DNA of 64,000 bases from Candidatus Poribacteria bacterium (lineage in GTDB: Bacteria > Poribacteria > WGA-4E > PCPOR2b), in NCBI GenBank assembly GCA_965116925.1, contig OZ220744.1, positions 2,720,001 through 2,784,000 of the forward strand, in the 5' to 3' direction. The notes below the pieces were generated by a model that ran no database searches, was not told the origin of the DNA, and saw only the letters and a list, made by a program, of their open reading frames with translations. Positions 33,091-49,949 of this stretch are shown piece by piece. A program made the position numbers and the translations under genes. Positions within the stretch are counted from its first letter, which is position 1, and each line of letters begins with the position of its first letter.

Positions 33091-33915
33091 TTATCCTACC
33101 TCTTCACCATCAAGCCTACCAACCTGCAGATCGATCTCTTCACGGGTCTCCATCTTATCGATTTTGCCGTCCGCCATGTAGAAAATTCGATCCGAGACAT
33201 CAAGCATCTTTGTGTCGTGGGTGGCTGTGATAATCGTGACCCCATTCTCCTCATTTAGACTTTTCAGGAGGTCAATAATTTCAAGCCCGGTCCGTGTGTC
33301 TAGGTTTCCTGTTGGCTCATCCGCGAGGACAATCGCGGGATCGTTTGCGAGGGAGCGCGCAACGGCGACACGTTGTTGCTGACCACCGGAGAGTTCAAGC
33401 GGCTTATGCTGGACCCGTTCTCCTAACCCCACAGTGGTTAGCAGTTCAACCGCTTTTGTGCGGCTATCATCAGCAGTCATCCCAGCGAAAATCATGGGGA
33501 GGGAGACATTTTCGAGGGCGGTCATCACAGGGATGAGGTTGAACGACTGGAAAATGTAACCGATTTTACGGCAGCGCAGCCATGCCAATTCGTAGGCATC
33601 TAGTTGTGCGATATCCACTTCATCTATGTAGACCCTGCCCTCTGTCGGCTTGTCCAAGCCACCGATCATGTTGAAAAGCGTTGACTTACCGGAGCCTGAT
33701 GGTCCCATAATCGAGATGTACTCTCCACGGCGGATTTCAAAGTTGGTGCCTCGCAACGCCTCAACGACAGTGGTGCCCATCTCGTATTTCTTAATTAGAT
33801 TCCTGACCCGTACCGTGTTTTCCTTGGGTAGATCCCTTGCAAATCGGGCGGGCGTTTCTGTCGGCACGGCGGTCTGCCCTGCTGTTTCCGGAGATAGTCC
33901 TTCTAATTCTGCCAT
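33091..33915 (-). CDS. ABC ATPase, MacB/LolD/FtsE type
   Basis: GPSGSGKST, LSGGQQQRV, LADEPTGNLD and THD. Start reassigned to 33915. Confidence 0.93.
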   Translation of the reverse strand: MAELEGLSPETAGQTAVPTETPARFARDLPKENTVRVRNLIKKYEMGTTVVEALRGTNFEIRRGEYISIMGPSGSGKSTLFNMIGGLDKPTEGRVYIDEVDIAQLDAYELAWLRCRKIGYIFQSFNLIPVMTALENVSLPMIFAGMTADDSRTKAVELLTTVGLGERVQHKPLELSGGQQQRVAVARSLANDPAIVLADEPTGNLDTRTGLEIIDLLKSLNEENGVTIITATHDTKMLDVSDRIFYMADGKIDKMETREEIDLQVGRLDGEEVG

Positions 33916-33916
33916 T

Positions 33917-34336
33917 TTACCTGTTTCCTTTCTTCGCTTTTTGGGGAACCGCAAATCCTACCATTCCCCGCTTGCCTAACTGCCGCATAAACGTGAACAG
34001 CGATGTCTCCGCCTCTTTTCTCGTCATGCGATATTTGTCACAAAGTTGTTTGACGATATAACCGATGGAATTATGTCCATCGCATAGTTGCCACACAAAG
34101 CCTCCGACATCGTCCAAGACAACCACACGGTTGGGAGGCAGCATAAAGAGTTTCGCTACCAACTTTAACCACAGCGTCTCCTTCTGAGGAATAACCAATG
34201 CAACTTCCCCTTTGTCATCGACCTCCCATTCGATTAACTGGTTGCGTAGCGGCAATGATTTTAAGATGTCCCCTCGATCCAGTTGGGATTCTGGACGTTT
34301 CTTGAGTCTGAGTTTGTAAAGGATTGCATTAATCAT
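33917..34336 (-). CDS. PqqD-family / RiPP recognition element (RRE) protein
   Basis: LDDVGGFVWQLCDG..SI..IV..L...Y.....EAE..L..F...L...G winged-helix pattern. Confidence 0.8.
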   Translation of the reverse strand: MINAILYKLRLKKRPESQLDRGDILKSLPLRNQLIEWEVDDKGEVALVIPQKETLWLKLVAKLFMLPPNRVVVLDDVGGFVWQLCDGHNSIGYIVKQLCDKYRMTRKEAETSLFTFMRQLGKRGMVGFAVPQKAKKGNR

Positions 34337-34346
34337 CGGTCTATTT

Positions 34347-34379
34347 GGTTCATTGGTACATTAGTTCATTGGTACATTA
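34347..34379. repeat. Octamer tandem repeat (A/G)GT(T/A)CATT, representative tract
   Basis: Similar tracts near 19979, 29569, 32951, 35645, 38728, 40081 (inverse), 51610, 61571 and 62971. Confidence 0.75.
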
Positions 34380-34385
34380 TCCGTG

Positions 34386-34640
34386 CTATAGCGCAATTTC
34401 TGCCGTCGCGTACGCGAGAGCAAAGAGGAGGAATAGTATAGCGTAACCAATTTTTGAATTGCAATCAGGAAACTTCCTTTTGAGATCCGTTGCACAATAC
34501 ACGGCAACCGCTGCGGAACCTGTTAGGCTCACGCCGAGAAAAATCGGATCTGGAATGTCGAGTTCTCCGATGAAGTACCCCATCAAACCACAGAGAATAC
34601 ACCACAAGAACCAGACGGGACCAGAATCATACCACTTCAT
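34386..34640 (-). CDS. Small 3-TM membrane protein (84 aa)
   Basis: Three hydrophobic stretches; purine-rich RBS before ATG 34640. Confidence 0.6.
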   Translation of the reverse strand: MKWYDSGPVWFLWCILCGLMGYFIGELDIPDPIFLGVSLTGSAAVAVYCATDLKRKFPDCNSKIGYAILFLLFALAYATAEIAL

Positions 34641-34711
34641 CTCTCTTTCCCCCTTTGCCGTAATTGTGGTGCGTGGGTTCATGTTACGTTTCACGTTTCA
34701 CGCGTCACGTT

Positions 34712-35641
34712 TTAATGACGCCGGATGCTCGCCGCAATCTCTTCGGCTGTTCTCGCTGCATCCTGTTTGGCGATCGCTTGGACGACGTAGATCCGATTGG
34801 AGTGATGACAGTACCAGAGGTTCACGGCGAAAGTTTTGCGACGCATAATTTTGTCGATCACCAGCGCGGGACCAAAAGGCACGCGGTCTATGAGACGAGT
34901 TTCCTCTCCGATTAACGTTAGCCGTTCTTCTGCATCGCCGTTGCTGGATTCAATTGAGAAGCCATATCCACGGATGGCTTTGGCGTATCTCCCTCGAAAC
35001 CACTCCTCAAGATCTTGTTCCTTGAGCGTAACATCTGCGACTCCATACCGTTCGATGCTAACTTTTCGACTTCCATCTACGAACGAAAAGAGCAGGTAGC
35101 CCGACAACAGTTTATGCTTGTCGAGGCGATACCGCCGCGGAACTTCTGCATTGAGTTGGTAGGCACTCCAGAGCGTCGCCTGTCCTACCGGGTGATCTTG
35201 AACCGACCTAAATATTCGGCTAGTTGTCTCCTTAATATTTTCCTTGAGATGTCCCATAACCTGCACGATTGTAATTCGCTTGCAGATATGGCAGTGGAAG
35301 ATAACGCCGCTCGCCCGAAAATCGCCCTTCCAGTTGAAGAAAACAACCTCTCTGTCCTCGAAAAACGCCTCATCCTTGATTAGATTGACGTTACGCTGGA
35401 TGTGCAGGTTTGTATCTTTGCGTTTATAATTTTTGCGGACGAGCTTGAAATAGTCGTCGAGGACCTTTTGGAGGTCTGGTTTCTTCTGCTTTGATTCAGA
35501 CCATTTTAACTCAAGGCGCGGCATATCCGCGTCCTCTAGGCGCAGGTATCCACTTTTATCGTCACCAGATAATCCACTCAATTCCCAATCTGCGGGTAGT
35601 TCAAGGGTAATGCCACCCCACCCTAAAGTTGTCCATTCCAT
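34712..35641 (-). CDS. Hypothetical protein, possibly two PsbP/Mog1-like alpha/beta domains
   Basis: 309-aa ORF inside the operon. Two halves each begin W..(L/V)P..(W/Y).L and contain a (F/W)xC motif. Fold assignment is a guess. Confidence 0.55.
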   Translation of the reverse strand: MEWTTLGWGGITLELPADWELSGLSGDDKSGYLRLEDADMPRLELKWSESKQKKPDLQKVLDDYFKLVRKNYKRKDTNLHIQRNVNLIKDEAFFEDREVVFFNWKGDFRASGVIFHCHICKRITIVQVMGHLKENIKETTSRIFRSVQDHPVGQATLWSAYQLNAEVPRRYRLDKHKLLSGYLLFSFVDGSRKVSIERYGVADVTLKEQDLEEWFRGRYAKAIRGYGFSIESSNGDAEERLTLIGEETRLIDRVPFGPALVIDKIMRRKTFAVNLWYCHHSNRIYVVQAIAKQDAARTAEEIAASIRRH

Positions 35642-35681
35642 AGTTGGTTCATCGGTACATTAGTTCATTGATTATGAAGTT

Positions 35682-35814: not shown

Positions 35815-35878
35815 ATGAAGTTAACGGTTGAGGGCATCTAGGGCTTCCACACATGTCACTGATGGTCCCTGACGAATC

Positions 35879-36610
35879 TTAAAGCATTGGACTGTCAGGT
35901 CTGGGATTAGTCTCAGTCCTCTTATTCTCGGAAATCTTGGGGGTAGTGGACGAAGGAATTTCAAGTCCGGTCAAATTCTTAAGAATGGAACGAGCAGCCA
36001 TATGTACCAATTCATCAACAGCCCGTTTGTAAGTCCACTGATCCCCTGTTTGTACAGAAATCTCACCTGTTCCTTCCCAGACGACATCACCCATTGTACA
36101 TGACCAGACTTGTCCAAATATATTCATTTTGATTTCTTTTACTACTAATGGGTCTTTGCTCAAGATCCTTGGTGCAAGTCCCTCTGTTTGTGATTGCTCT
36201 AAGAGTTCGACGTACAATAGATATTCGACACCTACCACTGTCCCAATTTTTATCAGACTGCCTTTGTTCAAGATAGCTGAACGGTTATAGTTGTTTATCA
36301 GTCGTGAATAGTCTTCTATCAATCCCGCATTGCTGATTAAGGCTATTGTTTCAAGGTCCCCTATAAACTTACCTTCAGGAAATTTATTGCTAAGATCTTT
36401 ATTCAACTTATTTCCAAACGGTCTTCGTAATCCTTCCTGACTGGCGCTGGCAACAACAGGAAGTAAGCCCAATCCTCCTGCAGCGAGTGCCCCCTGTTTA
36501 GATTCTGTGGCAAAATAATCGAATTTGACATTCTGTGTAATAGGCGCTGCACAACCTGAAAAAATCACCAACATAAGGGGGAACAGTTTTTGGTGTATTG
36601 ATCGTTTCAT
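35879..36610 (-). CDS. Lipoprotein (CsgG/LpoB-like fold possible)
   Basis: Lipobox FSG-C and G.VVW.G motif; visibly more AT-rich than its neighbours. Confidence 0.65.
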   Translation of the reverse strand: MKRSIHQKLFPLMLVIFSGCAAPITQNVKFDYFATESKQGALAAGGLGLLPVVASASQEGLRRPFGNKLNKDLSNKFPEGKFIGDLETIALISNAGLIEDYSRLINNYNRSAILNKGSLIKIGTVVGVEYLLYVELLEQSQTEGLAPRILSKDPLVVKEIKMNIFGQVWSCTMGDVVWEGTGEISVQTGDQWTYKRAVDELVHMAARSILKNLTGLEIPSSTTPKISENKRTETNPRPDSPML

Positions 36611-36716: not shown

Positions 36717-38714
36717 TTAGAAAGGCTTGACAATCACCGCTTTAGAGACTAGCGCAATTGCAACCGTTCCCATTCCAATCAGTCCGACACCACAGACAAA
36801 GCCTGCTGCTAAAACGGGATTAAACATGAACCATCGTTTCAGTCCGAATATCTTAATCATGTAAAATCGACCGATAATTGCTCCCATTACCTTTGGAAGC
36901 ATCATGCCTGGATCTGCTCCGATGCCGCCGACGATCCCGTAGAACCACATACTCGGCATCTTTGCCACCCAGAGTATGCCGTAGATTGCCAGCGAGGAGG
37001 CGAAGCCTGCCGCAACATAGTTGCCACGAATGGCTTGCAACATCTGGCTGTTTCCGTCACGAAGCGAGGTTTTCCAGAGGCATTCGTTGGTCGCATAGAG
37101 GGGCCACCACGTCTGTGCGAATGGGTATTGCGCCGACGGAATTGGCGCAACTTTCCAGACAAAATGCCAGACCACAATGCCGGAGACGATCAGGATCGGC
37201 ATAAGCAGCAATCGTGCAGCGATACTACTGGTGAAGGTGGTGCCTGTCAATTCGAGGACACGCCAACTTTGGGTGCCACGTCCGTAGTCTTCGTCCGGCA
37301 GCGGGACGAACCAGATATCGATCTCCTCATAACGACTCAGGATAAATGTAGTTTCGTGGAGATAAGGGATCTCGAAAAGGTCACGGCCGAGGATCCCGTA
37401 CGTTCGCGCAGTGATGTATGAATTGATCGGGGTGTACAAAAAGGCGAATCCGATAAGGAAAACCAGTGGGAAGTTCGGCGCCATATAGGTGTGGACAATA
37501 TAGATAAAAGTGGTCATCCCAAAGAGCCATAGGATTGCCATCAACCAGAGCGGAAAATCGCCGCGTCCCGGTGGTGGTTCTCTTAACGATCTGCCTGCCC
37601 CTGTCTGTTCCTGTCGGGCTTGCTTAAACTTTATCACCATCGGAATCGAGGCTGCCATGCCAACGAGGGCGAAGCTGAACGATTTTCCCATCCCAAAGCT
37701 AATCCAAAAATCGAGACCGTTATATAAGCCTACACCGCGGACATCCAAGCCGGGACGCCACTGATGTAAAATCTCTGCGGGATAGAGAAGTCGTGGGTTC
37801 AGAATAAACTGGGTAAAGAATGCCCCTGCCAGCTCCGTCATGATAATGGGAAATGGCAGCACAAAACCGGTGAGTACCGCTCCGAAGTCGGTCGATAATG
37901 CGAATACACCTGTTGGCGCGATTTCTTCAATTACATTCGTGAAATCGATAAATGGAATTTTCAGGAGCTGTATCGGCGTTGTCATCATCACGCCTGTAAG
38001 TGAGGGGATACCGATATAGATAAATCCCCAGATCAAACCCGCCATAGATCCGACCGAAAAAACCCGCCACCGCCACGTTTCGACACGTCCGGTGGTTTCT
38101 GCTAAGGCGGTCGCGCCCTGTGCTTCGATGGGTGCCATTGGGTAGGGTAGCCGCTCCATATCCGCTGTCAGTCGAAACAGAAAGTAGCCTGCACTGATAT
38201 AGCGGATCTCCCCCAGCAGCTTGAATATCAGGAAGAATGCGATGGGCCAGAACCAGTCCATGTGCAAGAGCGAACGCTCTGCAATCGCTATCGCATCTTT
38301 CGGCGGCACAATCCAGAAAGGGATTTTATCCGCAATTTCATACGACGCAGCTTGTGGCGTATTGATAAAGTATGCGTACCAGATAAAGCCGCGATACTGA
38401 CCCCCGGACCCGACCGCTGCACCGGTGAGTCCAAGTAACATATAAAGCTCTTGTCGCCGAGCGGTTGTGAAAGATCGACGGGCTAGCTCTGTGAACAGGA
38501 TAACTGCGACCCACGGTGCTGCCCCTGCCCCGGATTGACCAGAGACGAGGGTCAGGTAGATTGACCCCGGCATCATCAGCAAGCCGACAAAAAGTGCGCC
38601 CAAAAAGACCTTCAGCGTTAGACCCGATTCAAAAGTGCGGATACCACCATCGATGTCGTAGCGCTGTGCCCAAACTTGCCACTCTTCTGCTTGTGTAATT
38701 CGTTCTCTTGCCAT
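36717..38714 (-). CDS. OPT-like polytopic membrane protein (putative peptide transporter), paralogue 2
   Basis: 665 aa with many TM segments; ERLPYP.AP and PIPS.QYP motifs. Confidence 0.7.
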   Translation of the reverse strand: MARERITQAEEWQVWAQRYDIDGGIRTFESGLTLKVFLGALFVGLLMMPGSIYLTLVSGQSGAGAAPWVAVILFTELARRSFTTARRQELYMLLGLTGAAVGSGGQYRGFIWYAYFINTPQAASYEIADKIPFWIVPPKDAIAIAERSLLHMDWFWPIAFFLIFKLLGEIRYISAGYFLFRLTADMERLPYPMAPIEAQGATALAETTGRVETWRWRVFSVGSMAGLIWGFIYIGIPSLTGVMMTTPIQLLKIPFIDFTNVIEEIAPTGVFALSTDFGAVLTGFVLPFPIIMTELAGAFFTQFILNPRLLYPAEILHQWRPGLDVRGVGLYNGLDFWISFGMGKSFSFALVGMAASIPMVIKFKQARQEQTGAGRSLREPPPGRGDFPLWLMAILWLFGMTTFIYIVHTYMAPNFPLVFLIGFAFLYTPINSYITARTYGILGRDLFEIPYLHETTFILSRYEEIDIWFVPLPDEDYGRGTQSWRVLELTGTTFTSSIAARLLLMPILIVSGIVVWHFVWKVAPIPSAQYPFAQTWWPLYATNECLWKTSLRDGNSQMLQAIRGNYVAAGFASSLAIYGILWVAKMPSMWFYGIVGGIGADPGMMLPKVMGAIIGRFYMIKIFGLKRWFMFNPVLAAGFVCGVGLIGMGTVAIALVSKAVIVKPF

Positions 38715-38978: not shown

Positions 38979-40073
38979 TTAGTCCAATGCTTGTAGGAAC
39001 GCTTCAAAACTGGAGGCTTGGATTGCTCTGAGATGCAGTTGTGTCAGACGCTCGGTATCTAGTATCAATTCAAGTTTCTGCTGAACGTGTTGTAGGTTAT
39101 TCTGCGGGAATCTCGCATTGAGTACTGAGAGAATATTTTTGATAGTAGTTTCGCGCGCGCCTTGTTCAATGCCTTGTTCAATACCTTGTGCCTTGCCTTG
39201 TTCAATGCCTTGTGCCTTGCCACGTTCAAGCAGCACTTCTGCCATTGACTGTGCCATTGAGGATACCTCCATTTCTTCTGTATGCCGATCTACCAAGGTT
39301 AGTAACTCGTTGTGTTCTTCAGCAGGACGGCGATGCAGAATCAATAACAACAGATACATAATTGCTCTATACCGCTGCTCCGATTCTGTCACATCCAGCG
39401 AGTTCAACTGTGATAGTGCTTGAACCAACGCTTCGCTTAGTGCCTCTCGACTTGCACCCTCTTTTTGAAGAACCGTTAGCAGCCAGCCCAACGGGTGCCC
39501 TGTCTTTGTTAAATCCGTCTCATCTGTTTCCTTCACGCTTAAAAACAAAGTGTCAAATTTGGGAACAAACCGAGAGAGTAGGTCCGGAATGTCCATTATG
39601 TCAGTGAGTGCCAAGGAAACGCTCCAACGCCGTTCCCCCGTATATAACACCATCGGGAGGATCGGACGCAAACGCCGCTCACTTCCCGGAACATCATCTG
39701 ACTCCCATTCCCTACGTTGTGCGTCCCACAGTTGCGTCATGTAAAACAGCACTCGAAATCCCATCAGCGGATCTACTGTAGATTGGTGTTCAAGCAAGAT
39801 ATAGATGAGCAGTTCATCGGTTTCCGAACCCCGCCGAAATGGCACGCTGAACACGAGGTCCGATTCCTGTTCTCGGAGTGTGTCAGAAATGAAGCTTCTG
39901 TTGAGTGGTGTAAGTTGGTCAAAATCTAAAAACGCTACCAGCTCGTTTGCAACGATTTCTACCAAGCCACGGACATATTGCTTGTCTTGGAACAACCACC
40001 GCGCGCTTCGGTCAGGAAAGTGTTCAATCGGAAAATCGACAGAAGCGCGTTCTTCTGTTTCCTCAGTTTGCAT
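38979..40073 (-). CDS. Rpn/YhgA-like PD-(D/E)XK nuclease
   Basis: ESDLVF, ILLEHQS, FRVLFY, PMVLYTG motifs and G.EQG repeats. Confidence 0.9.
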   Translation of the reverse strand: MQTEETEERASVDFPIEHFPDRSARWLFQDKQYVRGLVEIVANELVAFLDFDQLTPLNRSFISDTLREQESDLVFSVPFRRGSETDELLIYILLEHQSTVDPLMGFRVLFYMTQLWDAQRREWESDDVPGSERRLRPILPMVLYTGERRWSVSLALTDIMDIPDLLSRFVPKFDTLFLSVKETDETDLTKTGHPLGWLLTVLQKEGASREALSEALVQALSQLNSLDVTESEQRYRAIMYLLLLILHRRPAEEHNELLTLVDRHTEEMEVSSMAQSMAEVLLERGKAQGIEQGKAQGIEQGIEQGARETTIKNILSVLNARFPQNNLQHVQQKLELILDTERLTQLHLRAIQASSFEAFLQALD

Positions 40074-40100
40074 AGTTTGATGAACTATTGAACCAATGAG

Positions 40101-42098
40101 CTAAAACGGCTTGACAATAACCGCTTTGGAGACTAGTGCGATTGCAACCGTTCCCATGCCAACAAGCCCGACACCACAGATGAAGCCTGCCGCCAAGACG
40201 GGATTATACATGAACCATCGTTTCAGACCAAACTGTTTGATCATGTAAAACCGACCGATGAGGGCACCCACCACTTTTGGAACCATCATCCCCGGGTCTT
40301 GACCGATCCCCCCAACAATGCCGTAGAACCACATACTTGGCGCCTTTGCCATCCAGAGCAGCCCGTAAATTGCCACTGAGGAGGTAAAGCCGGCTGACAC
40401 GTAATCGCCGCGAATGGCTTGTAACATCTGGCTATTTCCATCTCGAAGTGAGGTTTTCCAGAGACATTCATCGGTTGCGTAGAGAGGCCACCATGTCTGT
40501 GCAAAGGGATACTGTGAGGACGGGATAGGTGCGATCTGCCAGATGAAATGCCAGACCACGATTGTCGCAACAATCAAGAGCGGCACCATCAAGGCACGCG
40601 CTAGGACGTCGCTGGTGAAAGTTGTGCCGGTCAATTCAAGCACACGCCAATGCTGCGTACCCGCTCCGTAATCTTCATCTGGCAGGTGGACAAACCAGAT
40701 ATCAATCTCCTCGTAGCGGCTTAAAATAAACGTTGCCTGATGGATGTAGGGCAGCACGAAGAGCGGTCGCCCTAACACTCCAAATGTTCGTGCGTTGATA
40801 TAGGAGTGCAAAGGGGTATACAGAAAGGCAAAGCCGAGGAGGAAAGAAACGGGAAAGTTCGGGACCATCCGATGCACAATCCATACATACACCACCATGC
40901 TGAGACCCCATAAGCCGCCCATGAACCAAATTGGGAAATCACCACGTCCCGGCGGCGTTTGCAGCGAGCCTCGCGCCCCCGCCTCTTGTTGTTTTTTCCT
41001 TCTGAGGCTCAACATGATTGGGATGGACGCTGCCAAACCGACGGCAGCAAAGCTGAAGGATTTGCCCATGTTGAAACTCAACCAGAAATCGAGGTCATTA
41101 AACAGCTTAACGCCACGCATATCCAAGCCCGGACGCCACTGATGTAGGATCTCCAATGGGTAGAGGATTCGCGGGTTCAGGATAAACTGGGTGAACATCG
41201 CTGCAACGAATTCGCTAATAATAAGTGGAAACGGTAGCACAAACCCCTGTAGCATCATGCCAAAATCTGTCCATAGGGCAAACATCCCCGATGGTGCAAA
41301 GCTTTCGATGCTTGGGGTGAAGTCAATAAATGGGATTTTCAGAATCTGTATCGGTGTTGACATCATCACGCCTGTGAGCGCAGGAATACCGATATAGAAA
41401 AACCCCCAGAACAGTCCCGCCATGGAACCGATTGAAAAGACACGCCAACGCCATGTTTCGCCCTGACCCGTGGTTTCGGCTAATGCGGTCGCGCCTTGCG
41501 CTTGAATCGGTGCCAACGGGTAGGGGAGTCGCTCTAAATCTGCTGTCAGACGGAACAGAAAATAGCTCGCGCTAATATAGCGAACCTCTGCTAGCAACTT
41601 CATGACCAGAAAGATCGCAAGGGGCCAGAACCAATCCATATGCAACAGCGAACGCTCTGCAATTGCCATCGCGTCCTTTGCGGGTGCAACCCAATAAGGG
41701 ACTTTGTCCGCGATTTCATACGACTGTGCCTGCGGCGTGTTGATAAAGTAGGCGTACCAGACAAACGGATAGGCACGATATTGGATTCCAGAACCGACCG
41801 CCATGCCGGTTAGTCCCAGCAAAATGTAAAGTTCTTGTCTCCTTGCAGTTGTGAAAGACCGGCGCGCCAATTCTGTAAATAGAATGACCGCCACCCAAGG
41901 CGCAGCACCTGCGCCCGACTGACCTGCAACTAAGGTCAGATAGATTGACCCCGGCATCATCAATAGACCGATGAAGAGTGCACCTAGAAAGACTTTCAAG
42001 GTTAAGCCGGACTCAAAGGTTCTTAAACCGCCTTCAACATCATAACGTTGTGCCCAAGCTTGCCACTCTTCTGCTTGCGACACCCTTTCTCTTGCCAA
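40101..42098 (-). CDS. OPT-like polytopic membrane protein, paralogue 1
   Basis: 665 aa, colinear with 36717..38714; TTG start with AAGGAG RBS. Confidence 0.7.
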   Translation of the reverse strand: MARERVSQAEEWQAWAQRYDVEGGLRTFESGLTLKVFLGALFIGLLMMPGSIYLTLVAGQSGAGAAPWVAVILFTELARRSFTTARRQELYILLGLTGMAVGSGIQYRAYPFVWYAYFINTPQAQSYEIADKVPYWVAPAKDAMAIAERSLLHMDWFWPLAIFLVMKLLAEVRYISASYFLFRLTADLERLPYPLAPIQAQGATALAETTGQGETWRWRVFSIGSMAGLFWGFFYIGIPALTGVMMSTPIQILKIPFIDFTPSIESFAPSGMFALWTDFGMMLQGFVLPFPLIISEFVAAMFTQFILNPRILYPLEILHQWRPGLDMRGVKLFNDLDFWLSFNMGKSFSFAAVGLAASIPIMLSLRRKKQQEAGARGSLQTPPGRGDFPIWFMGGLWGLSMVVYVWIVHRMVPNFPVSFLLGFAFLYTPLHSYINARTFGVLGRPLFVLPYIHQATFILSRYEEIDIWFVHLPDEDYGAGTQHWRVLELTGTTFTSDVLARALMVPLLIVATIVVWHFIWQIAPIPSSQYPFAQTWWPLYATDECLWKTSLRDGNSQMLQAIRGDYVSAGFTSSVAIYGLLWMAKAPSMWFYGIVGGIGQDPGMMVPKVVGALIGRFYMIKQFGLKRWFMYNPVLAAGFICGVGLVGMGTVAIALVSKAVIVKPF

Positions 42099-42527: not shown

Positions 42528-45500
42528 TTAATCCGCTGGTGCGGGTTGAGCAGCCAGACCGCCAACGCCCGGAGCGTCTTCCGTCTCGCTCTCTTGCCGT
42601 CCACGCTCATGGAACTCACCGCGGATATCAGCACTGAACGTCCGCCAAATTAGTAGCTGTTTTCGGACAAGGTTCAAGAAACGACGGTTGACGCGCTTCC
42701 ATGAAGCAATCTCCCCGCTCTCACGGTGGACATCGAGGTGAATCTTATACAACTCTTCCTCTTCTCCGCCGACCGGTGAGGTGACAAGCCGAATGGATTG
42801 GCTGACTCCGAGATCGTAGGGGGCGAGCCACACCATCATGCTGATGTTGTAGGCTTCTTCCTCTTCCTCTTTCCCTTCCACTACCACAGGCGTTCGACCG
42901 AAGGCGACCTGATCCGTGTAGAAATCGCTTGCGGATTCGTCGGCGTGTGCTTCAAAGTAATCGCGCATAAAGATATTTAAGCCGAGCGATTCTTCTGCCA
43001 ACACGGTGAAGGGGAGATCGAAGTGCCACTCGTCGCCTTCAGGCTCCGGCAGCTGCCATTTCCGTTCGATGTCAGGCACCGCCATGCGACTGGCTTTAAT
43101 TGCAGGATACAGTGTACTTCCAATCACGACAATCATTACAATAATGGTTGCTACCACTGTTGACATTGACGAGTAGTTGAGGGTCAATCCAGCAAGCAAG
43201 CCAAAGTTGACAAGGACGGTTGCGACTGCCTGGCCGAGCAGGTAACCGAGCACAGCACCGACAATCGCATACACACACGCTTCCGCGAGGAACAGGAAGG
43301 CGATATGCACGGGAGCGAGTCCGACAGAACTGTAGATGCCGATTTCACGGACCCGTTCGTAGACCGCACCGAGCATCGTGTTCAGAACGATCAGCGACGC
43401 AATTAAAATTGGTATGAATAGGTTACCCATACCGGAGAAAGAGGTCATTCCGATGGAACTGTAGAGATAGGTGTCCCGATCTTTTCCAACAAAGAAGTCG
43501 AGTGCGATTCGGTTCATCAGCGGTGCCATGATCAGGTCCAGTTTATCTGCCGCACTGAAGATTGTTGGATCGCCGGGCTGTGCTTCCATGTTGACAGCGA
43601 CGGAGCGTAACGTCCCGCCCTGATTCATGACTACATCATACGGCAGGATAGCCACAGCATCGGGAGGTAGATGAATATATTTCTCCAACTCTCCTTCCAT
43701 GGCTTGGTTCTGTCCTTGGGCGCCACCGCCTCGCGCTTCCTGCTGCTGCATCAGTTGGTAGTCAACAGGTGTCAGTTCTTCGCCATCATTATCCTGTAAG
43801 TCTTTGAAGCCGATACCGAGAACACCCGTAACGGTGAAGTCTGCGCCGTATACGGATACAGTCGCTTTGCCCATATCGGCTTCGGTGATGCCGAGCAGAT
43901 CCGCCATACCTTTGGGGAGGACACAAGCATAGGGCCATTGTGTGGGCCACTCTGCTTCATCGTCGGGGTGATACCATCGACCATACTGGAGGTAACGGTC
44001 AATTCCTGTTACACCGGGTTCATCTTGACTCATCCCGACCAACATGGTAGCAGAGTAGGTCTTTGGCTGACCGGTGGTAGTATTGACAGGCGGTACAGGA
44101 TCTTGCAGGTTGGGGGTGCGCTCTAGCTGCACAAACGACTGATCGCCGGTGCCCGCGGACTGATACCATGCGCGTGGCGCGACGATGTTATGCACTCGGA
44201 GGACGGATTCTTCGCCCAGCTCAATCAACGATCCCTCCTGACGTAATTGGGCTATGATTGCTTCAACCTCTACGTCAGCCTGCTCTGCCGATTTACCTTG
44301 CTGCCCCAGTCGTTTCTTCAGCAGTAACCGTAGATCTTTTTCAGGGATTTGTGTTTTCCGCAGATCATTTGTGAGTGAGTTGACAACAGGTTCTTCGAGC
44401 GGATTCCAATACTGATCTCGGATAAGCATCCCGGTGTAGCGCGGCGTTACGGAAGGTAGGTTGGTGCTGTTGGGATGCATAAAGGTACGCACCGATGTAA
44501 AGGAGATGACCGTAAAGGTGAGAATAACCAGTGTGCTACAGGTGAGGATGGTGCGGCCCTTCCGCTTACGCATATTGGAAATACCTAGACTGAAAGCGGC
44601 AGCGGAGGCAGACAAGCGTCCCACGTCTGCCTTGTACACTTTTGATCCCTCCTGCTTAATTTTTTCCACCTGTTCTTCAAATTTCCGGACGATGATGCTG
44701 ATCACAATTGCCGTCAACGCAAGGACGACGAACGCAATCAGGATGATAACCGGCGTCGTGGTAATCTGGAATGCGGGGTGCACCTGCGCCAAGAAGAAAA
44801 AGACAACGAGGAAGATCGCAGCTGTCCCCATAATCTGTTTTTGGACGGTTGGGAAAGCGAATATCAACCGTTCCATGAAGTAGGCGAACGGGATCAGGAG
44901 GGCGAGATAGAACATCACACCATTGACTACGTCATTGCCGGTTTTCTTCACATCGGGGTAGGCGCGGGATTCGTATCCCCACGCGGCGCGGGCAAGTTTG
45001 AGTGCCTGCTGATAGTCTTTTTGGGTGAGGGCAGCCTCCGCCTGATTTAGATGTTCGTTGGCGAATTGGTGGAGCTGATCAAGCCGATCGCTGCTGATGC
45101 CGAACCGTTTATACAGACTCGCCCGGTTCTCATCGAGCCACCACATATCGCGGACGACAACGTATGGGGTTACGCGAATGCTACCGTTCTCGCGGACAAC
45201 AAACCCTTCTCCGGTATAGAGTGTCGGGTTCTTCGTTCCGCTTTTACTCGCCTTGATCAATAGTAACCGTTTGCCGATTTGTCCATACGCCATGCCGACC
45301 TTGATACGACTGTTAGGCTCCGAATAAACGAGCGCGATAGGCTCAGTTGCCGAGATACCTTCCTGCTGCCACGGCTTCGATACGCCATACTTTTCTGGTG
45401 GGCTATCGCTTGCGGCATCAAAAACTTCCAGTTCACGAAGCGTTCGTAGGTATCGCTGATCCACAAGATCGTAGATAGTGGTAGACACACAGGGGAAAAC

Positions 45501-48500
45501 CACGATACGGCATCCACGACGGTGGGTGTTAATCGGTATCAGGTTCGGCAAGAGTTTCGCGCCGAAGTTACCGAGATCCGGTGCGTAGACAATATCACCG
45601 GAATCCGGGTGGAGGATATAAGCTTCCACCTCTTGCGTTCCTTTGAGGCGGATGGTGGCACGCCCCTCCATCGCAAGTCCTGCAACCTCAAAGTTTCCTT
45701 TATTGTCGCCCATTGCAATGAGATCGCCTCGCACCCCCATCATGGTTTTGTGCTGATTCCGCAAAGCGAGAATAGGATACTCCACCGGTTTGTTTGGTAG
45801 CGCGCTCTCACGGGCATCATACTCGACGACATCACCAAACAGGTTGCAGTAGAAGTTCCCCACCCGTGCTGCGGTGGGCATCTTCGGATCGCGCATCGCT
45901 TGGATAAGAATAGCGGCAAGGGTTTTCGCCTGTTTATGCAAGGCACCATCGTGGCTCAAATCCATTCGGTCAATTGTGTCGAGCGGGGTATCGGTCAACA
46001 CGCGTGCATCGTCGATGGTGGCAAAAGCAATTCCGGTAAAGCCGGTCAGGGTTGCCACTTCGCTATCAAAGGCTATCTTACCAGGTATGTAGGTCTTCCA
46101 GATCTTACCGCCACTAGCAGAGATTGCGTTGACAAAGTTGGTCTCACCACCAAACCCGGCGATATCAATGAGTGCCTTAATATCATCGACTTCCTCTTGT
46201 GTAAATTCGGACGGGTCCTCGTGGCGCAGGGCAAGCATCGCATCCATTCGATTGAGCAGGCGCACCTTATTCTTCCGGTTCTTCCGCGCCTCCCGGATAT
46301 CGTTTCGGATGAATCGTTCGACTTCCTTACGGATATAGTCCATATCCTTGAGCATATCCTCGGAAGGTTCGCCCTGATTTTTCATCTGCTCAAACTGCAT
46401 CTTCATCAATCGAGACACTCCGGATAGCCCGACCAACGTTGCGTAATGCTCAGTAACTAAGCTTTCAAGGCTCTTGCCCTCGATGGCTTTTTTCGGATCG
46501 ATGCCAGCTGCAACTGTCCATTGAGTATTCATCACCGCTTGGCGGATCTGATCGTCGGTGAAGGTCCATAGTTTCTGGATACGTTCACCGAAATCGGCAC
46601 CCTCTGCGTATTCGGCAAGTTTATTTCCGATGGAAGCGAACTCGCGGCGGAGGACAAATTCGGGCTGCTGGTCATAGAACCACCCTTTGTTGAATACGCC
46701 AAACTGGTCGTTCTGGCTGGAGAGGTCAATGGCGATAAAGAGAGAGGTGTAGTAACGATTAAAGATGTCTTGCAGTGCAATCGCTTGTTCGATGGAACGT
46801 ATCTTCCGTGTGTATTCTGACTCGCTGATACGTGCAATTTTCTCGACCCGTTTTTGTAGATTGCGAAATCGAGCGTTCCGCATCGTGAGCAGGTTATCAC
46901 GGAGGAGAATCTTGGTCTCCTCGTCCGGATCGCGGTCAAGACGGTCAAGGATGTTCAGCAGGTTCTGGAGTTCGACAATATCGTTTTTGGCTCGCCGCTT
47001 CACCATCTCTAGTAGATGCTGTTCTTCAAGCTGACCGAAGATCTGCTCTCGGACAGCCATCGCTCGGTCTGCTGCATCTTCAGGGAGATAGTGGCGGAGG
47101 ACGAGTGCCTCTTCGGCGAGGTAGGGACGGTTCAGCGACGCATGGCGTTCAAGGAGGGATTCAATTCGATAGCGTTCAAGGCGAGCGTTCCGCATCGCGG
47201 TTTCGAGGATACTCTGTTTATCTCTGGTCAGGTCATCAACCAAAATTTGGTCTAATTCTCGTGAGGTTGCTGTTCCCGTTGTCGGGTCCATCATCTCCAA
47301 CTTCTGGTGGAGTTGAGTCTGAACAATCTCAAACTGCTTGAGGGTTGCCTCATTGAGGAAGAGTTCTAGCTCATCCGCAAAGCCTGCCGGGAGGTGATCC
47401 GGTTTAGAACTTAACTGGGTGATAGCGTTTTTGATACTATCCTCTGCATCGCTGCTTGCGGGAATATTGGCGAGCGTTCGTTCAAGGAGTTGCCGTTCTT
47501 CTTCGATGTAGGCTTCCAGAGATTTTTCAGCGCGGTTGACAACCCTACGAGCTGACTTGATTCGTTCCAAACCCTTAAAGTCAAGATGGCGGTCTAACAA
47601 CTTCTCTTGGGCATACTGGAGGGTGAATTTCCGTGGATCTTCAAATTCCCAGTCCTGCAAATTGTCCGAGAGTCGCTGAACATCTACCTCCAGATACGAC
47701 GGTAGGTCACTCGGTACTGGTAGATAATAACGTCCCCCCTCCCGTTCCTTCGGTACGAGATAGCTGCTGTCTGGCGTTTGTACATATTTCCCTTCAATCC
47801 GTTCTGCCCTTAAATCCGCTTCCAATTTATCTATTGCCCAAACGTCCAACCGAGCCATCGGTAGGGCAATCTGTTCAATCAATTCACGTTGGGTGTCACG
47901 GCATTCAGCTAATGCTTGTGTGCGCAGTTTTAGGGTACGGTTAAGCATTGAACGCAGGAATTGAGTGGTCTGCAGCGCGTCTTTCTTGAACTTCGCGAGG
48001 TTGACCTCTAGTCGTGATTTTTCCTCTTCGGTGAATCCTTGCTTCTCCCGTTTCTTGGTTGTTTCGAGTTTCTTCTTCTCTTTCTCTTTTGCGTCACGCT
48101 GGGCGTTACGCAACGAGTCAATGTTGCCTTTGGTTGTCTGTAGATCGGAGAGGGTTGTTGCTAGGGAGGCGACATCTGCTTTGAGTTCGTGGACATCGTG
48201 GAAGAAGTTAGGGGGTAAATCTACCAGCACATTTCGGTCGATCGATAGCAGTAGCTTACGTCCCAGTTCCTCAAACTCAAAGAGGTCGGTACTTAAACCG
48301 CGACGCAGCCCGCGCATTGTCGGTGTGCCGGGAGAATCCGCTTCTCGTCCGACGATATCTTGACCAATCCCCTCCATAAATGCGCGCATACCCCCCAGTC
48401 CTTGGAAGTGGGCATCTGTTGCGACAAACAGAAGGGAACGCCCCGGTCGAAATTCCTCTTGGCTGAAGATACGAGCAAGCTCCAACAGAGTGGCAATGCC

Positions 48501-49949
48501 GCCGGTGGGATCGGCACCGGGTGCCATTGCGGGAACGACAGACATTGAGTCGTAATAGCCGGTGATAACAACCAATTCGTCCTTTAGGGTTGGGTCGCCA
48601 CCTTCAAGGAAACCACGAATGTTCTGCCCAATACGCTGTTCCCAAGTAATGGTACTAGTGAGACGTGCGTAAATTTTCTGAGGAGACGATTCCGATTGTG
48701 CTTCCCCTTCGCCAAGCATAGCCAAGAGTTCGTCGGCGTCCTCTTTAGCAATCCAGAAGCGGGGGATGTTGGCAGGGACCGTCAGGAATTTGTTCTCAGC
48801 CTCACCGCGGATAGTTGTCTCCGGCTCGATGAAGAGGACAGCTTTCGCGCCAAGCATGGCGGCGTTAATCCATTTGGTACTAGAGTTGAAGTCAACCAGT
48901 ACAACGCTGCCTTGGGGGATAAAGATGCTGGATTCATAGGCGGCAACAAACTCGCCTTCTTCGTCAATTTGCCCATTGTTGTTGTTATCAATACCATCAG
49001 TTGCATCGCCGGGGATTTCGTCTACGAAGGCGTCACCATCGTTGTCGATGCCGTCGGTATCCCATTGCAAGATCTCAGTTAGTGGGGGAATCTCACCGTA
49101 TTCGTCGATCTGTCCGTCTTCATTGTTGTCAATACCATCTTGCGTCTTTTGGAGATGGCCGTTAAGCACATCGTCAGTGATGCTGCCGACACCGATACGG
49201 AAACGGTGGGCGAGGTCTTCCAAAGTATCGCCAGGTTCAACTTTGTGCCAGAAACCGCCGATATCTTTGCCGTTGAACGAGGAGAGTTCCCCACTTCCCC
49301 CATAAAAGAGGGGCGCGGTCAGTCCACCGGTGGGAATAAAGAGCGAGTTGCCTTCGACCAGCACTAACTCGCCCGGTTCGTCGATTTCACCATCATCATC
49401 GTTATCGCTGCCATCGGTTGCTTGGTCACGGAGGTATTGGTTATGCGGGTCAGCCAAGATAGCTTGTGGGTCAACTTGATAGGATTTAGCAATTCCGTCA
49501 AAGGTTTCGCCTTGAACGACTACATGCGAGACACCGTTGGGGAGGAAGGAGGTGCGAACAAGGTTGGGCCAGATTGACCAGATTCGGTAAGTCTTCAGAA
49601 GCGTTTGATCTTCGGAAAGAATTTCTACCTTTCCATCACCGTGATCTATTGGAACAGAAACGGGAAACTCACGGCTCTCAACGTTTTGTAAGCCGATCTC
49701 GACAAATTGGTCAAAGATGTACTTGCTGCCTGAAGCGGCTTCATCGTAACCGGTGACGCGGGTGGGCAGATTGGAGAGTCGAGCGATGTCTTTTCGCATT
49801 CGGCCGATATCGACTTTGTCACTGATTTTGACTGCAACCTCCGAAAGCCCGACAGACAGCTGTTCGTCAACAGCGAAACCGCCGTGTGGAGATAGTAGCG
49901 CGAGAATGCAGAGCCATAGACTGATGTAATAATATCTCTTGATGATCAT
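42528..49949 (-). CDS. Giant (~2473 aa) membrane protein: signal peptide, 2 LysM, acidic Ca-binding-like repeats, degenerate M28 domain with long helical insertions, TM bundle, MacB/FtsX-like permease
   Basis: LysM motifs HVVVQGETFDGIA and HKVEPGDTLEDLA. DG.DN..DG.IDE x4. M28-like NI.G..G, YYDS, GAD, LLELAR. FtsX-type R..RT.LT and ERVREIGIYSSVG. Start reassigned to ATG 49949 (GGAGG RBS). Confidence 0.85.
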   Translation of the reverse strand: MIIKRYYYISLWLCILALLSPHGGFAVDEQLSVGLSEVAVKISDKVDIGRMRKDIARLSNLPTRVTGYDEAASGSKYIFDQFVEIGLQNVESREFPVSVPIDHGDGKVEILSEDQTLLKTYRIWSIWPNLVRTSFLPNGVSHVVVQGETFDGIAKSYQVDPQAILADPHNQYLRDQATDGSDNDDDGEIDEPGELVLVEGNSLFIPTGGLTAPLFYGGSGELSSFNGKDIGGFWHKVEPGDTLEDLAHRFRIGVGSITDDVLNGHLQKTQDGIDNNEDGQIDEYGEIPPLTEILQWDTDGIDNDGDAFVDEIPGDATDGIDNNNNGQIDEEGEFVAAYESSIFIPQGSVVLVDFNSSTKWINAAMLGAKAVLFIEPETTIRGEAENKFLTVPANIPRFWIAKEDADELLAMLGEGEAQSESSPQKIYARLTSTITWEQRIGQNIRGFLEGGDPTLKDELVVITGYYDSMSVVPAMAPGADPTGGIATLLELARIFSQEEFRPGRSLLFVATDAHFQGLGGMRAFMEGIGQDIVGREADSPGTPTMRGLRRGLSTDLFEFEELGRKLLLSIDRNVLVDLPPNFFHDVHELKADVASLATTLSDLQTTKGNIDSLRNAQRDAKEKEKKKLETTKKREKQGFTEEEKSRLEVNLAKFKKDALQTTQFLRSMLNRTLKLRTQALAECRDTQRELIEQIALPMARLDVWAIDKLEADLRAERIEGKYVQTPDSSYLVPKEREGGRYYLPVPSDLPSYLEVDVQRLSDNLQDWEFEDPRKFTLQYAQEKLLDRHLDFKGLERIKSARRVVNRAEKSLEAYIEEERQLLERTLANIPASSDAEDSIKNAITQLSSKPDHLPAGFADELELFLNEATLKQFEIVQTQLHQKLEMMDPTTGTATSRELDQILVDDLTRDKQSILETAMRNARLERYRIESLLERHASLNRPYLAEEALVLRHYLPEDAADRAMAVREQIFGQLEEQHLLEMVKRRAKNDIVELQNLLNILDRLDRDPDEETKILLRDNLLTMRNARFRNLQKRVEKIARISESEYTRKIRSIEQAIALQDIFNRYYTSLFIAIDLSSQNDQFGVFNKGWFYDQQPEFVLRREFASIGNKLAEYAEGADFGERIQKLWTFTDDQIRQAVMNTQWTVAAGIDPKKAIEGKSLESLVTEHYATLVGLSGVSRLMKMQFEQMKNQGEPSEDMLKDMDYIRKEVERFIRNDIREARKNRKNKVRLLNRMDAMLALRHEDPSEFTQEEVDDIKALIDIAGFGGETNFVNAISASGGKIWKTYIPGKIAFDSEVATLTGFTGIAFATIDDARVLTDTPLDTIDRMDLSHDGALHKQAKTLAAILIQAMRDPKMPTAARVGNFYCNLFGDVVEYDARESALPNKPVEYPILALRNQHKTMMGVRGDLIAMGDNKGNFEVAGLAMEGRATIRLKGTQEVEAYILHPDSGDIVYAPDLGNFGAKLLPNLIPINTHRRGCRIVVFPCVSTTIYDLVDQRYLRTLRELEVFDAASDSPPEKYGVSKPWQQEGISATEPIALVYSEPNSRIKVGMAYGQIGKRLLLIKASKSGTKNPTLYTGEGFVVRENGSIRVTPYVVVRDMWWLDENRASLYKRFGISSDRLDQLHQFANEHLNQAEAALTQKDYQQALKLARAAWGYESRAYPDVKKTGNDVVNGVMFYLALLIPFAYFMERLIFAFPTVQKQIMGTAAIFLVVFFFLAQVHPAFQITTTPVIILIAFVVLALTAIVISIIVRKFEEQVEKIKQEGSKVYKADVGRLSASAAAFSLGISNMRKRKGRTILTCSTLVILTFTVISFTSVRTFMHPNSTNLPSVTPRYTGMLIRDQYWNPLEEPVVNSLTNDLRKTQIPEKDLRLLLKKRLGQQGKSAEQADVEVEAIIAQLRQEGSLIELGEESVLRVHNIVAPRAWYQSAGTGDQSFVQLERTPNLQDPVPPVNTTTGQPKTYSATMLVGMSQDEPGVTGIDRYLQYGRWYHPDDEAEWPTQWPYACVLPKGMADLLGITEADMGKATVSVYGADFTVTGVLGIGFKDLQDNDGEELTPVDYQLMQQQEARGGGAQGQNQAMEGELEKYIHLPPDAVAILPYDVVMNQGGTLRSVAVNMEAQPGDPTIFSAADKLDLIMAPLMNRIALDFFVGKDRDTYLYSSIGMTSFSGMGNLFIPILIASLIVLNTMLGAVYERVREIGIYSSVGLAPVHIAFLFLAEACVYAIVGAVLGYLLGQAVATVLVNFGLLAGLTLNYSSMSTVVATIIVMIVVIGSTLYPAIKASRMAVPDIERKWQLPEPEGDEWHFDLPFTVLAEESLGLNIFMRDYFEAHADESASDFYTDQVAFGRTPVVVEGKEEEEEAYNISMMVWLAPYDLGVSQSIRLVTSPVGGEEEELYKIHLDVHRESGEIASWKRVNRRFLNLVRKQLLIWRTFSADIRGEFHERGRQESETEDAPGVGGLAAQPAPAD

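Follow-up and report, generated by a model that had tools for sequence, protein, structure and literature searches.

What might a giant membrane protein, two paralogous transporter-like proteins, a protein of the PqqD fold and an ATP-binding cassette (ABC) ATPase do together in the envelope of a bacterium? The question is raised by a run of about 17 kb on the minus strand of a 64,000-nucleotide stretch of DNA (hereafter, the window; positions count from its first letter) that belongs to a complete, 6.47 Mb genome of Candidatus Poribacteria (contig OZ220744.1, positions 2,720,001 to 2,784,000), a phylum of sponge symbionts that are as yet unculturable. A first-pass annotation, made from the sequence alone, had described this run as an uncharacterised peptide-handling envelope system, and the genes that it named are all present and co-oriented between 33091 and 49949, as judged by open reading frames (ORFs) and Pfam matches; the minus strand from 33091 to 50033 holds nine frames of at least 100 amino acids (aa). 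The answer to which we lean, tentatively, is that the run encodes a conserved mechanotransducer of the type VII (MacB/FtsX-class) ABC kind, paired with a permease of the OPT fold, and that the pair handles what are probably envelope peptides.

Type VII ABC systems are few, and each one studied has revealed a new envelope process, be it efflux, lipoprotein sorting, control of division hydrolases or lipid hydrolysis. In the present system, each part comes from a known superfamily, and it is the combination, with its fused silent head, its extra helices and tail and its pair of putative adaptors, that matches no characterised system. The earlier view that nothing comparable has been characterised agrees with our literature search, which covered few subscription journals and found no description of a Poribacteria/FtsX/PqqD, an OPT/FtsX/M28/PqqD or an M28/FtsX/OPT system. 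The system is large, widespread and unnamed.

The gene set and its distribution

In the window, the genes follow one another, 5' to 3', as the giant, OPT-like copy 2, an Rpn/YhgA-like gene, OPT-like copy 1, a 243-aa ORF, the gene of a 309-aa protein, a 102-aa ORF, the PqqD-like gene and the ATPase gene, and a core of five of these recurs far beyond this genome. An alignment scan of species-representative genomes with the OPT-like protein yielded 524 confirmed stretches, a figure to be read as at least 524, and the best 80 of these gave 69 Poribacteria loci. The giant lies upstream of the OPT-like gene in all 69, the 309-aa gene lies downstream of it in 68 of 68 judgeable loci, the PqqD-like gene is present in 66 of 66, and an ATPase gene lies no more than 9 kb away in 62 of 62; in every judgeable locus, the five genes run giant, OPT-like, 309-aa, PqqD-like, ATPase. 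A whole-genome search recovered the OPT-like gene from 171 of 176 Poribacteria genomes (131 of the 133 of high quality) and from 30 of 31 genera, and because of this breadth it is a core gene of the phylum, not an accessory one. A set so nearly universal in Poribacteria probably serves, therefore, a basic need of the envelope or of nutrition. Of the two paralogues recognised at first, both exist and are 79% identical to each other, but the second copy is specific to one genus: 18 of the 19 genomes in the genus of the window carry it, and few genomes elsewhere do.

Beyond these genomes, 80 metagenome loci were chosen by likeness to an Armatimonadota homologue, their OPT-like proteins being 40-48% identical to that of the window. 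Here, the giant stands directly upstream of the OPT-like gene in 66 of the 69 loci that can be judged, which brings the pairing to 135 of 138 judgeable loci overall. The 309-aa gene follows downstream in 34 of 55 and the PqqD-like gene in 32 of 48, the genes often being only 20-80 bp apart. Among the 21 loci that are fully flanked, eight read giant, OPT-like, 309-aa, PqqD-like, small FtsX, ATPase, and three read the same without a detected small FtsX; in another three, the ATPase, with or without the small FtsX before it, precedes the giant and the OPT-like gene, while five hold the giant and the OPT-like gene only, and two the OPT-like gene alone. The neighbourhood search across both collections, 69 Poribacteria and 80 metagenome loci, thus bears out the proposal that the five core genes form a conserved set, but the list of components had to be amended: a sixth, the small FtsX protein, belongs to it in other phyla, and the Rpn-like, 243-aa and 102-aa ORFs of the window had gone unlisted. 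By the names of their sources, the homologues come from Poribacteria, Armatimonadota, Gemmatimonadota and Zixibacteria, and 2321 protein clusters (90% identity) match the C-terminal part of the giant.

Two further features of the metagenome neighbourhoods were recorded. One group of loci (L081, L083, L087, L094-L101, L137, L146 and L148) carries a gene for a SPOR-domain (FtsN-like) protein after the ATPase gene, in 13 loci, then GrpE in eight and FtsZ in nine, about 2.7-5 kb past the OPT-like gene. In the loci that hold the giant and the OPT-like gene only (L130, L132, L134, L135 and L142), a protein of about 650 aa with DUF6785 and DUF6784 domains is encoded directly upstream of the giant; profile comparison finds it unrelated to the OPT-like family (probability 0.3%), and neither domain name was found in the literature searched.

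The component proteins and their local setting

The proteins that define the neighbourhood are the two OPT-like paralogues, copy 1 at 36717..38714 and copy 2, with a TTG start, at 40101..42098 (here and below, genes of the run are on the minus strand). Both are 665 aa long, and both keep every invariant column of a family that has more than 100 invariant residues of its own. The AlphaFold 2 (AF2) model of copy 1, with a predicted local distance difference test (pLDDT) value of 73.7, matches barley Yellow Stripe 1 (YS1) in Foldseek (7wst_A, E 2.1e-9, TM 0.62/0.68) and in VIA (7wsr_A, Z 21.1, root-mean-square deviation 4.3, 540 aligned of about 600 residues), the next chain having a Z of 4.4, at a sequence identity to YS1 of 13-14%. 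The modelled fold is that of the OPT/YSL family, as had been surmised from the sequence. Some homologues bear the NCBI name 'peptide transporter', and precomputed annotation places PF03169 on 4 of 120 homologues, among the matches listed; a PDB sequence-profile search returned no match for the family.

The giant is encoded at 42528..49949, as supported by Pfam, hydropathy, a ribosome-binding site and PDB sequence matches. Its longest frame, 42528-50033, opens with a GTG at 50033, a start that would overlap a promoter-like site (50046..50018). The ATG at 49949 is the likely start because it has GGAGG 7 nt upstream and because the relatives of the giant begin at the matching position; it gives a protein of 2473 aa, as against the approximately 2470 aa first estimated. 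Residue numbers in the giant are counted here from the GTG and are to be lowered by 28 for the ATG. After an N-terminal signal or anchor, about 1650 aa are extracytoplasmic, comprising a head of PA and M28-like domains, interrupted by LysM and Ca-type repeats and by a coiled coil, and then an uncharacterised domain of about 300 aa. Three helices (1702-1781) and a cytoplasmic loop lead into a MacB-type unit, with transmembrane helix 1 (TM1) at 1828-1846, then an outer stretch of about 350 aa, then TM2-4 at 2206-2310, and a conserved cytoplasmic tail of about 150 aa ends the protein. The seven-helix module (43074..44936), delimited by Pfam, hydropathy, PDB matches and alignment, includes, between TM2 and TM3, the invariant coupling-helix motif ERVREIG, and its extra helices bear charged residues, E1721, R1722 and H1752, that are invariant in the alignment.

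Pfam finds LysM, PA, Peptidase_M28, MacB_PCD and FtsX in the giant. The FtsX match (PF02687) reaches 47.8 bits against a cut-off of 25.5; MacB_PCD, at 22.2 bits, stays under its 27-bit cut-off; and Peptidase_M28 reaches 33.4 bits (cut-off 21.3), covering profile positions 1-77 of 193 only. Across an alignment of 24 homologues, 22 of them from outside Poribacteria, FtsX is matched in 24, Peptidase_M28 in 23, MacB_PCD in six (E up to 0.01, best 2.6e-7), LysM in two and PA in two. In PDB sequence searches, the FtsX part matches YtrF, MacB, LolC and LolF and the head matches the PA-domain aminopeptidases 2ek8 and 6hc6, with about 285 residues aligned to 2ek8; sequence-profile searches gave no PDB match for the domain at 1395-1700 or for the cytoplasmic tail.

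The giant had been described as an M28-like/FtsX protein, but the canonical His and Glu-Glu pair of M28 are lost in 24 of 24 homologues. The zinc ligands of M28, which we take to be His, Asp, Glu, Asp and His, joined by a catalytic Glu, were placed by a single pairwise alignment to 2ek8. In all 24 homologues, the His of the HxD motif is replaced by Tyr, the position of the GAxD Asp holds Glu or Asp, the Glu-Glu pair is replaced by Gly/Ala-His, and the later Asp is kept; the last His is an Asp in 22 of 24. The residues that now occupy the motifs, Tyr493, Asp/Glu508, Gly/Ala541-His542, Asp1103 and Asp1348, are themselves conserved. Because the canonical His and the Glu-Glu pair are missing from every homologue, the head is unlikely to be a working M28 peptidase; the pattern fits a pocket under selection from which the general base has gone, that is, a binding module or an unusual metal site and not a canonical aminopeptidase.

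Homologues from outside Poribacteria, of 1489-1863 aa, are without residues 164-232 and 259-373, which hold the LysM and the acidic repeats, and without the greater part of 554-1290, the segments missing from over 80% of the 22 being 554-590, 596-654, 663-808, 826-914, 926-1089, 1149-1171 and 1175-1290. Since they are missing from these homologues, the LysM, the acidic repeats and most of the charged coiled coil of about 700 aa (46164..48374, residues 554-1290) are, by alignment, inserts of the Poribacteria lineage, the coiled coil splitting the M28-like domain in two. In one Atlas cluster of 1863-aa relatives, 19% of the members have LysM.

The membrane part of the giant is better matched by a profile other than that of Pfam. 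PADLOC model PDLC01991 ('CARF_m8--CARF_LolE_TM') gives 163 bits with the window giant (42531-44966; Pfam FtsX, 48 bits), whose fragments match profile positions 78-208 and 417-561, and 208 bits with a short-form homologue, in one stretch from residues 825-1503, or profile positions 73-684 of 810. Because this match spans the whole module and the start of the tail, the two together form a separate family. A CARF domain was not found in the giant, and searches with the tail by itself returned neither a PADLOC nor a PDB sequence match. The next Atlas neighbours of the module are archaeal (Thermoproteota) FtsX proteins of 965-1076 aa, at scores of 0.83-0.84, which we note as a lead only.

At the other end of the run, the ATPase (33091..33915, 274 aa, PF00005 118 bits) starts at an ATG at 33915, one base after the TAA stop of the PqqD-like gene, which is the abutment noted at the outset. 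Its motifs are intact in translation: GPSGSGKST, LSGGQQQR, LADEPT and ATHD, corresponding to Walker A, signature, Walker B and H-loop. The top NCBIfam scores are for LolD (232.6 bits), YbbA (220), MacB (213) and FtsE (206), as expected of the MacB/LolD-type protein that had been proposed, with DevA and DarD also matched; all stay under the cut-offs, by 232.6 against 307.75 for LolD, 206.4 against 264.85 for FtsE and 214 against 375 for the darobactin-export ATPase model. The giant falls still shorter of the curated models, with 21 bits for FtsX (cut-offs 225-255) and 27.2 against 473 for LolC. At the level of sequence, these matches support placing the ATPase and the FtsX part of the giant in the MacB/Lol/FtsE (type VII) class. 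We rejected the PADLOC matches of the ATPase (mad3, AriA and others) as a defence signal, as they reflect generic ABC/AAA likeness.

The small FtsX protein, with 215-270 aa and almost no outer loop, is encoded beside the ATPase in 44 metagenome loci, and no locus of the 69 from Poribacteria has it; its scores on curated models are 24-33 bits for FtsX (cut-offs 225-255) and 58.5-69.1 against 362 for lolCE. This genome has an orthologue (G000:C1:1263520-1264233, E 1.1e-72, 42-48% identity to the cluster ones) of 226 aa, 1.5 Mb from the window, which adjoins a second ATPase of 242 aa (the pair spanning G000:C1:1262781-1264201); a MacB-type permease of 412 aa is encoded 3 kb beyond the pair. The window ATPase and the second ATPase are 63% identical. 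The cluster ATPases of other phyla share 69-73% identity with the former and 62-66% with the latter, and by this measure the window ATPase is their closer relative. The Poribacteria permease could be either a homodimer of the giant or the giant combined with the distant small FtsX. That the small FtsX and its ATPase are the cell's FtsEX was considered and rejected, a better full-length FtsX candidate (165 bits) being encoded at G000:C1:3302513-3303349.

Between the OPT-like genes and the ATPase gene lie those of two further conserved proteins. The 309-aa protein (34712..35641) has neither a signal peptide nor a transmembrane helix by hydropathy and is without a Pfam, NCBIfam, Atlas family or PDB sequence match, and it had been listed as hypothetical. 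That label no longer suits it: in the AF2 model (pLDDT 87.5), compared by VIA and Foldseek, residues 1-150 resemble cyanobacterial PsbP (2xb3, Z 14.2) and residues 153-309 resemble Mog1 (1jhs, Z 11.4), a Mog1 match with a Z of 11.9 being recorded as well, and further likeness is seen to TplEi, a two-domain immunity protein of the type VI secretion system (Z 11.0), and to the chaperone SciW (Z 9.0). The predicted structure is a tandem of PsbP/Mog1-like binding or adaptor folds, not an enzyme fold. The family conserves a CxxC pair (117, 120), C278 and C308-H309, the window copy having Arg at 308, a set that suggests a metal site. With an E limit of 0.001, its relatives number 1621 representatives (50% identity), and 246 remain when the limit is 1e-30.

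The PqqD-like (RRE-type) protein (33917..34336, 139 aa) matches PF05402 with 48.6 bits (cut-off 23.4) over profile positions 3-67 of 67, and it has a conserved basic N-terminal extension of about 60 aa. It stays under every NCBIfam equivalog cut-off, with 38 against 46 for PqqD, 30.8 against 80 for the lasso model and 30.2 against 100 for ScmD, GeoRSP being missed as well. No radical SAM, YcaO or other enzyme of ribosomally synthesized and post-translationally modified peptides (RiPPs) is among the Pfam matches of the run and twelve flanking genes, and compact versions of the cluster leave no space for a precursor gene, in agreement with what had been reported of the run from the outset. The 309-aa and PqqD-like genes come and go together: by profile, 35 metagenome loci have both, nine the 309-aa gene alone and none the PqqD-like gene alone, and eight of those nine are cut by a contig end, which leaves L113 as the true exception. 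Complex prediction for the two proteins gave a median score of 0.40 (runs 0.40, 0.77 and 0.20), the best of three controls reaching 0.00; the partner pLDDT was 66 or more, and the runs had 47% or more of their contacts in common.

The remaining genes of the run are local extras, as is the duplication of the OPT-like gene. The Rpn/YhgA-like PD-(D/E)XK 'transposase' gene (38979..40073, PF04754 E 4.7e-30) sits between the OPT-like paralogues; it looks like a recent insertion from outside the system, because it is present in 2 of the 69 Poribacteria loci and because the paralogues are only 94 bp apart in one relative's genome. The 243-aa lipoprotein-like ORF (35879..36610), which has a signal peptide with Cys in translation and weak NCBIfam matches to LpoB and MXAN_6521 (E about 0.009), occurs in 6 of the 69 loci, and a close relative's contigs skip it (joint 35664 to 36699). 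The 102-aa ORF (34386..34694), with three hydrophobic helices by translation and hydropathy, is doubtful or accessory and was found in 4 of the 69 loci at 63-70% identity. We rejected it as a remnant of the small FtsX, the profile of which matches nothing in these loci.

In the run, the gaps between genes are taken up by short repeats, direct as well as inverted, with a GGTTCATTGGTACATTAGTTCATTG-type motif and CGTTTCACG-rich arms, at 34342-34379, 35641-35670, 34686-34714, 42122-42151 and 42310-42335, and contigs of related strains join or break at them (34364/42125, 34712/35788 and 35717/42312). They look like small mobile repeats, which would explain the wide gaps in this genome.

Upstream of the giant, the proposed sigma70 promoter at 50046 is a real promoter-like site (50018..50046, minus strand; TTGACA-17-TAGAAT with an extended TG), with an 11/12 match, the best in 32800-50700, but the number of such sites in the region, 14 observed against 17.7 expected in shuffles, is not above chance. 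In four RNA-labelled libraries from two studies, contigs extend across the whole run, covering 30, 30, 30 and 29 of 30 bins; contigs cannot reveal a transcript, its strand or its ends, and carry-over of DNA is likely, because the same libraries contain contigs of 31-125 kb. Divergent from the giant, an XRE-type helix-turn-helix gene (50293..50637, plus strand, PF01381 E 3e-16) has, in 42 of 50 judgeable Poribacteria loci, a divergent homologue no more than 1.5 kb upstream of the giant; the product is a possible regulator. In the window, it is accompanied by a gene for an M78 (IrrE/ImmA-like) peptidase, the two occupying 50293-51553 (plus strand); the M78 gene is syntenic in 1 of the 69 loci. 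Downstream of the run lie genes for an ankyrin-repeat protein (31021-31602, minus strand) and a discoidin (F5/8 type C) domain protein (27429-29381, minus strand), domains that are eukaryote-like and often reported from sponge symbionts, and the ORF list includes four consecutive minus-strand frames of 811, 844, 872 and 865 aa at 650-10947.

A proposed mechanism and its alternatives

On the reading that we tentatively prefer, the giant would be the permease, its FtsX-type helices docking the LolD/MacB-class ATPase. In other phyla, the small FtsX encoded beside the ATPase would probably make up the other half of the permease; in this genome, the small FtsX gene is at a different place. In type VII ABC systems, ATP turnover moves an extracytoplasmic part, as PMC12646458 and general knowledge of the class have it; likewise, cytoplasmic ATP hydrolysis would here move the large extracytoplasmic head rather than pump a substrate through the membrane. 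With its catalytic residues lost and its pocket conserved, the PA and M28-like head is more likely to bind the ends of peptides than to act as a protease. The OPT/YSL-fold protein, a secondary transporter genetically locked to the machine, would carry the captured molecule across the inner membrane, in a direction that we infer to be import. By family, the cargo is probably a short peptide or a peptide-like compound; nothing in the analysis points to the glycopeptides that had also been mentioned. The tandem PsbP/Mog1-like protein and the PqqD-like winged helix might serve as an optional cytoplasmic pair of adaptors or regulators.

Several points weigh against this reading. Neither the 309-aa nor the PqqD-like gene is found nearby in 16 of 48 judgeable metagenome loci, and 15 of 37 are without a downstream ATPase gene, some having an upstream one, and because of this the full set is either not obligatory or dispersed. 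The 665-aa proteins of the window have no Pfam (E up to 0.01) or NCBIfam match, PF03169 included, and among 16 family members that model matches only two with E allowed up to 1 (best 6.3e-7); because the Pfam OPT model is so barely reached, the peptide substrate rests on a distant family likeness. A search for fused, longer (Rosetta-stone) forms of the OPT-like protein, which is weak evidence, found none. The assignment of M28 ligands depends on general features of the family and on the one pairwise alignment. For the predicted complex of the 309-aa and PqqD-like proteins, support is weak by the calibration of the tool, in which 116 of 157 solved complexes reached the mark, as did 2 of 215 mismatches; only 18 of the 157, along with both mismatches that passed, did so with a score no higher than 0.60. 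Poribacteria versions of the locus have intergenic gaps of 100-650 bp and mobile insertions, and the 17-kb run as a single transcript is putative. Finally, any contact among the giant, the OPT-like protein and the ATPase is hypothetical.

A bolder form of the preferred reading, which we regard as doubtful, envisages a hybrid machine in which the silent peptidase-fold 'hand' feeds or gates the OPT permease while the RRE and PsbP-like pair couples cargo or a signal to the ATPase; Poribacteria would have this as a core function, in common with Armatimonadota, Gemmatimonadota and Zixibacteria. If true, it would be the first case of an RRE that serves membrane transport instead of RiPP biosynthesis, and also the first in which a primary mechanotransducer and a secondary carrier are obligately paired.

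The strongest competitor, unlikely in our judgement, is a cell-wall machine in the manner of FtsEX, with the head positioned or activated on peptidoglycan, stem peptides released or captured there, and the OPT-fold protein recycling them. It would account for the LysM, a peptidoglycan-binding domain, in the Poribacteria giants and in 19% of the 1863-aa Atlas cluster, for the long coiled coil, which recalls the coiled-coil adaptors of FtsEX, and for the SPOR (13 loci), GrpE (eight) and FtsZ (nine) genes that follow the ATPase in one sub-lineage. However, the LysM and most of the coiled coil are missing from the 22 non-Poribacteria homologues, the SPOR/FtsZ neighbourhood is limited to one group of related loci, and the head is without the M28 catalytic residues; moreover, every FtsE and FtsX equivalog cut-off is missed, and the better FtsX candidate, at 165 bits, is encoded elsewhere in the genome.

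Export or maturation of a ribosomal peptide, RiPP or bacteriocin-like, appears improbable, even though the PqqD fold is chiefly familiar from RiPP pathways, where it recognises the peptide. In such a scheme, the PqqD-like RRE and the PsbP-like protein, acting as a chaperone, would hand the peptide to the membrane parts, which would suit the PF05402 match above cut-off and the weak matches to the lasso, SCM and GeoRSP PqqD models, the 214 bits of the ATPase on the darobactin-export model (a cut-off of 375 that it misses), and the presence of secretion chaperones such as SciW (Z 9.0) among PsbP/Mog1-like proteins. Yet no precursor, radical SAM, YcaO, cyclase or protease is found in the run or in the compact clusters, and a near-universal, single-copy set in a whole phylum is unlike natural-product clusters. 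One third of the distant loci, furthermore, keep the giant and the OPT-like gene without the PqqD-like and 309-aa genes, and OPT-family proteins are known to be importers.

We consider equally improbable a role in lipid or lipoprotein handling, whereby the FtsX module would extract a hydrophobic molecule and pass it to the head, as in LolCDE or YbbAP-TesA, the OPT-like protein having a separate or supporting role. The top NCBIfam scores, LolD for the ATPase (with YbbA second) and LolC/E for the small FtsX, point this way, as do the invariant charged residues E1721, R1722 and H1752 in the extra helices, and YbbAP-TesA, according to PMC12646458, can present membrane substrates to a periplasmic partner of hydrolase fold. 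All the Lol and YbbA cut-offs, however, are missed by a wide margin, the cluster holds no LolA/LolB-like or lipase-like partner, and the strict pairing with an OPT-fold gene would be left unexplained.

Far less credible still is a signal-gated membrane effector related to PADLOC 'CARF_m8 LolE_TM', in which the tail or the PqqD/PsbP-like pair would sense a cytoplasmic ligand and the membrane module would be switched by it. PDLC01991, the name of which presumably refers to candidate CRISPR-linked CARF membrane proteins, does score far above the Pfam FtsX match (163 bits for the window giant and 208 for the short form) and reaches into the conserved cytoplasmic tail. But no CARF domain was identified, the tail is without a PADLOC or PDB sequence match, the neighbours scanned by Pfam include no CRISPR, cas or other defence genes, and a phylum-core, single-copy set is unlike a defence island. 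Mere neighbourhood by chance or shared regulation, with no cooperation between the genes, is the least plausible reading of all: the wide gaps, the mobile insertions and the putative status of the single transcript would allow it, but across sources named for four phyla the gene order persists with proteins that are 40-48% identical, and 135 of 138 judgeable loci place the giant next to the OPT-like gene.

If the pairing of a mechanotransducer with an OPT-fold permease holds, it would provide a natural example of coupling between a primary motor and a secondary carrier and would give prokaryotic OPT-fold proteins and non-RiPP PqqD-like proteins a testable function.

Comparison with known systems

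PDLC01991 shares with the giant a profile match over the seven-helix module and the start of the tail, whereas its profile of 810 positions has no PA/M28 head, and no CARF or CRISPR context is seen here. Like PsbP, Mog1, TplEi/Tli4 and SciW, the group that also includes DUF1795-like proteins, the 309-aa protein has the PsbP/Mog1 fold, present twice in the two-domain layout of TplEi; unlike them, it is predicted to be cytoplasmic, has the CxxC...C...CH set and is without a Pfam, NCBIfam or PDB sequence match. With PqqD and the RREs, the PqqD-like protein shares PF05402 above cut-off and weak PQQ, lasso, SCM and GeoRSP matches, and it is set apart by the basic N-terminal extension of 60 aa, by its PsbP/Mog1-like partner and by a position ahead of an ABC ATPase with no RiPP genes nearby.

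Among the membrane and envelope parts, the 665-aa proteins agree with the OPT/YSL family (YS1, 7wsr/7wst; PF03169) in fold and approximate length, in contrast to their 13-14% identity to YS1, their own invariant residues and their tie to a giant FtsX gene. The arrangement of PA and M28-like domains resembles that of the PA-domain M28 aminopeptidases (2ek8, 6hc6), but here the motif residues are replaced, the head is anchored to an ABC permease and, in Poribacteria, it is split by the coiled coil of about 700 aa. Catalytically inactive M28-like receptors are familiar from the transferrin receptor and nicastrin.

The closest parallel as a whole is with the type VII ABC systems, MacAB-TolC, LolCDE, FtsEX-EnvC and YbbAP-TesA, with which the giant and the ATPase share the four-helix FtsX module, an extracytoplasmic stretch between TM1 and TM2 and the separate ATPase of the LolD/MacB/FtsE class. 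Against this common plan stand three extra helices before the module and a conserved cytoplasmic tail of 150 aa after it, a minimal, near-loopless FtsX that is the likely second half in other phyla, and a set of partners, the OPT-fold permease, the PqqD-like protein and the tandem PsbP-like protein, along with scores that miss every curated equivalog cut-off. YbbAP-TesA and FtsEX, as described in PMC12646458, already pair an ABC motor with an extracytoplasmic part of hydrolase fold; in the giant, by contrast, the hydrolase-fold head is fused to the permease itself, and its canonical catalytic residues have been lost.

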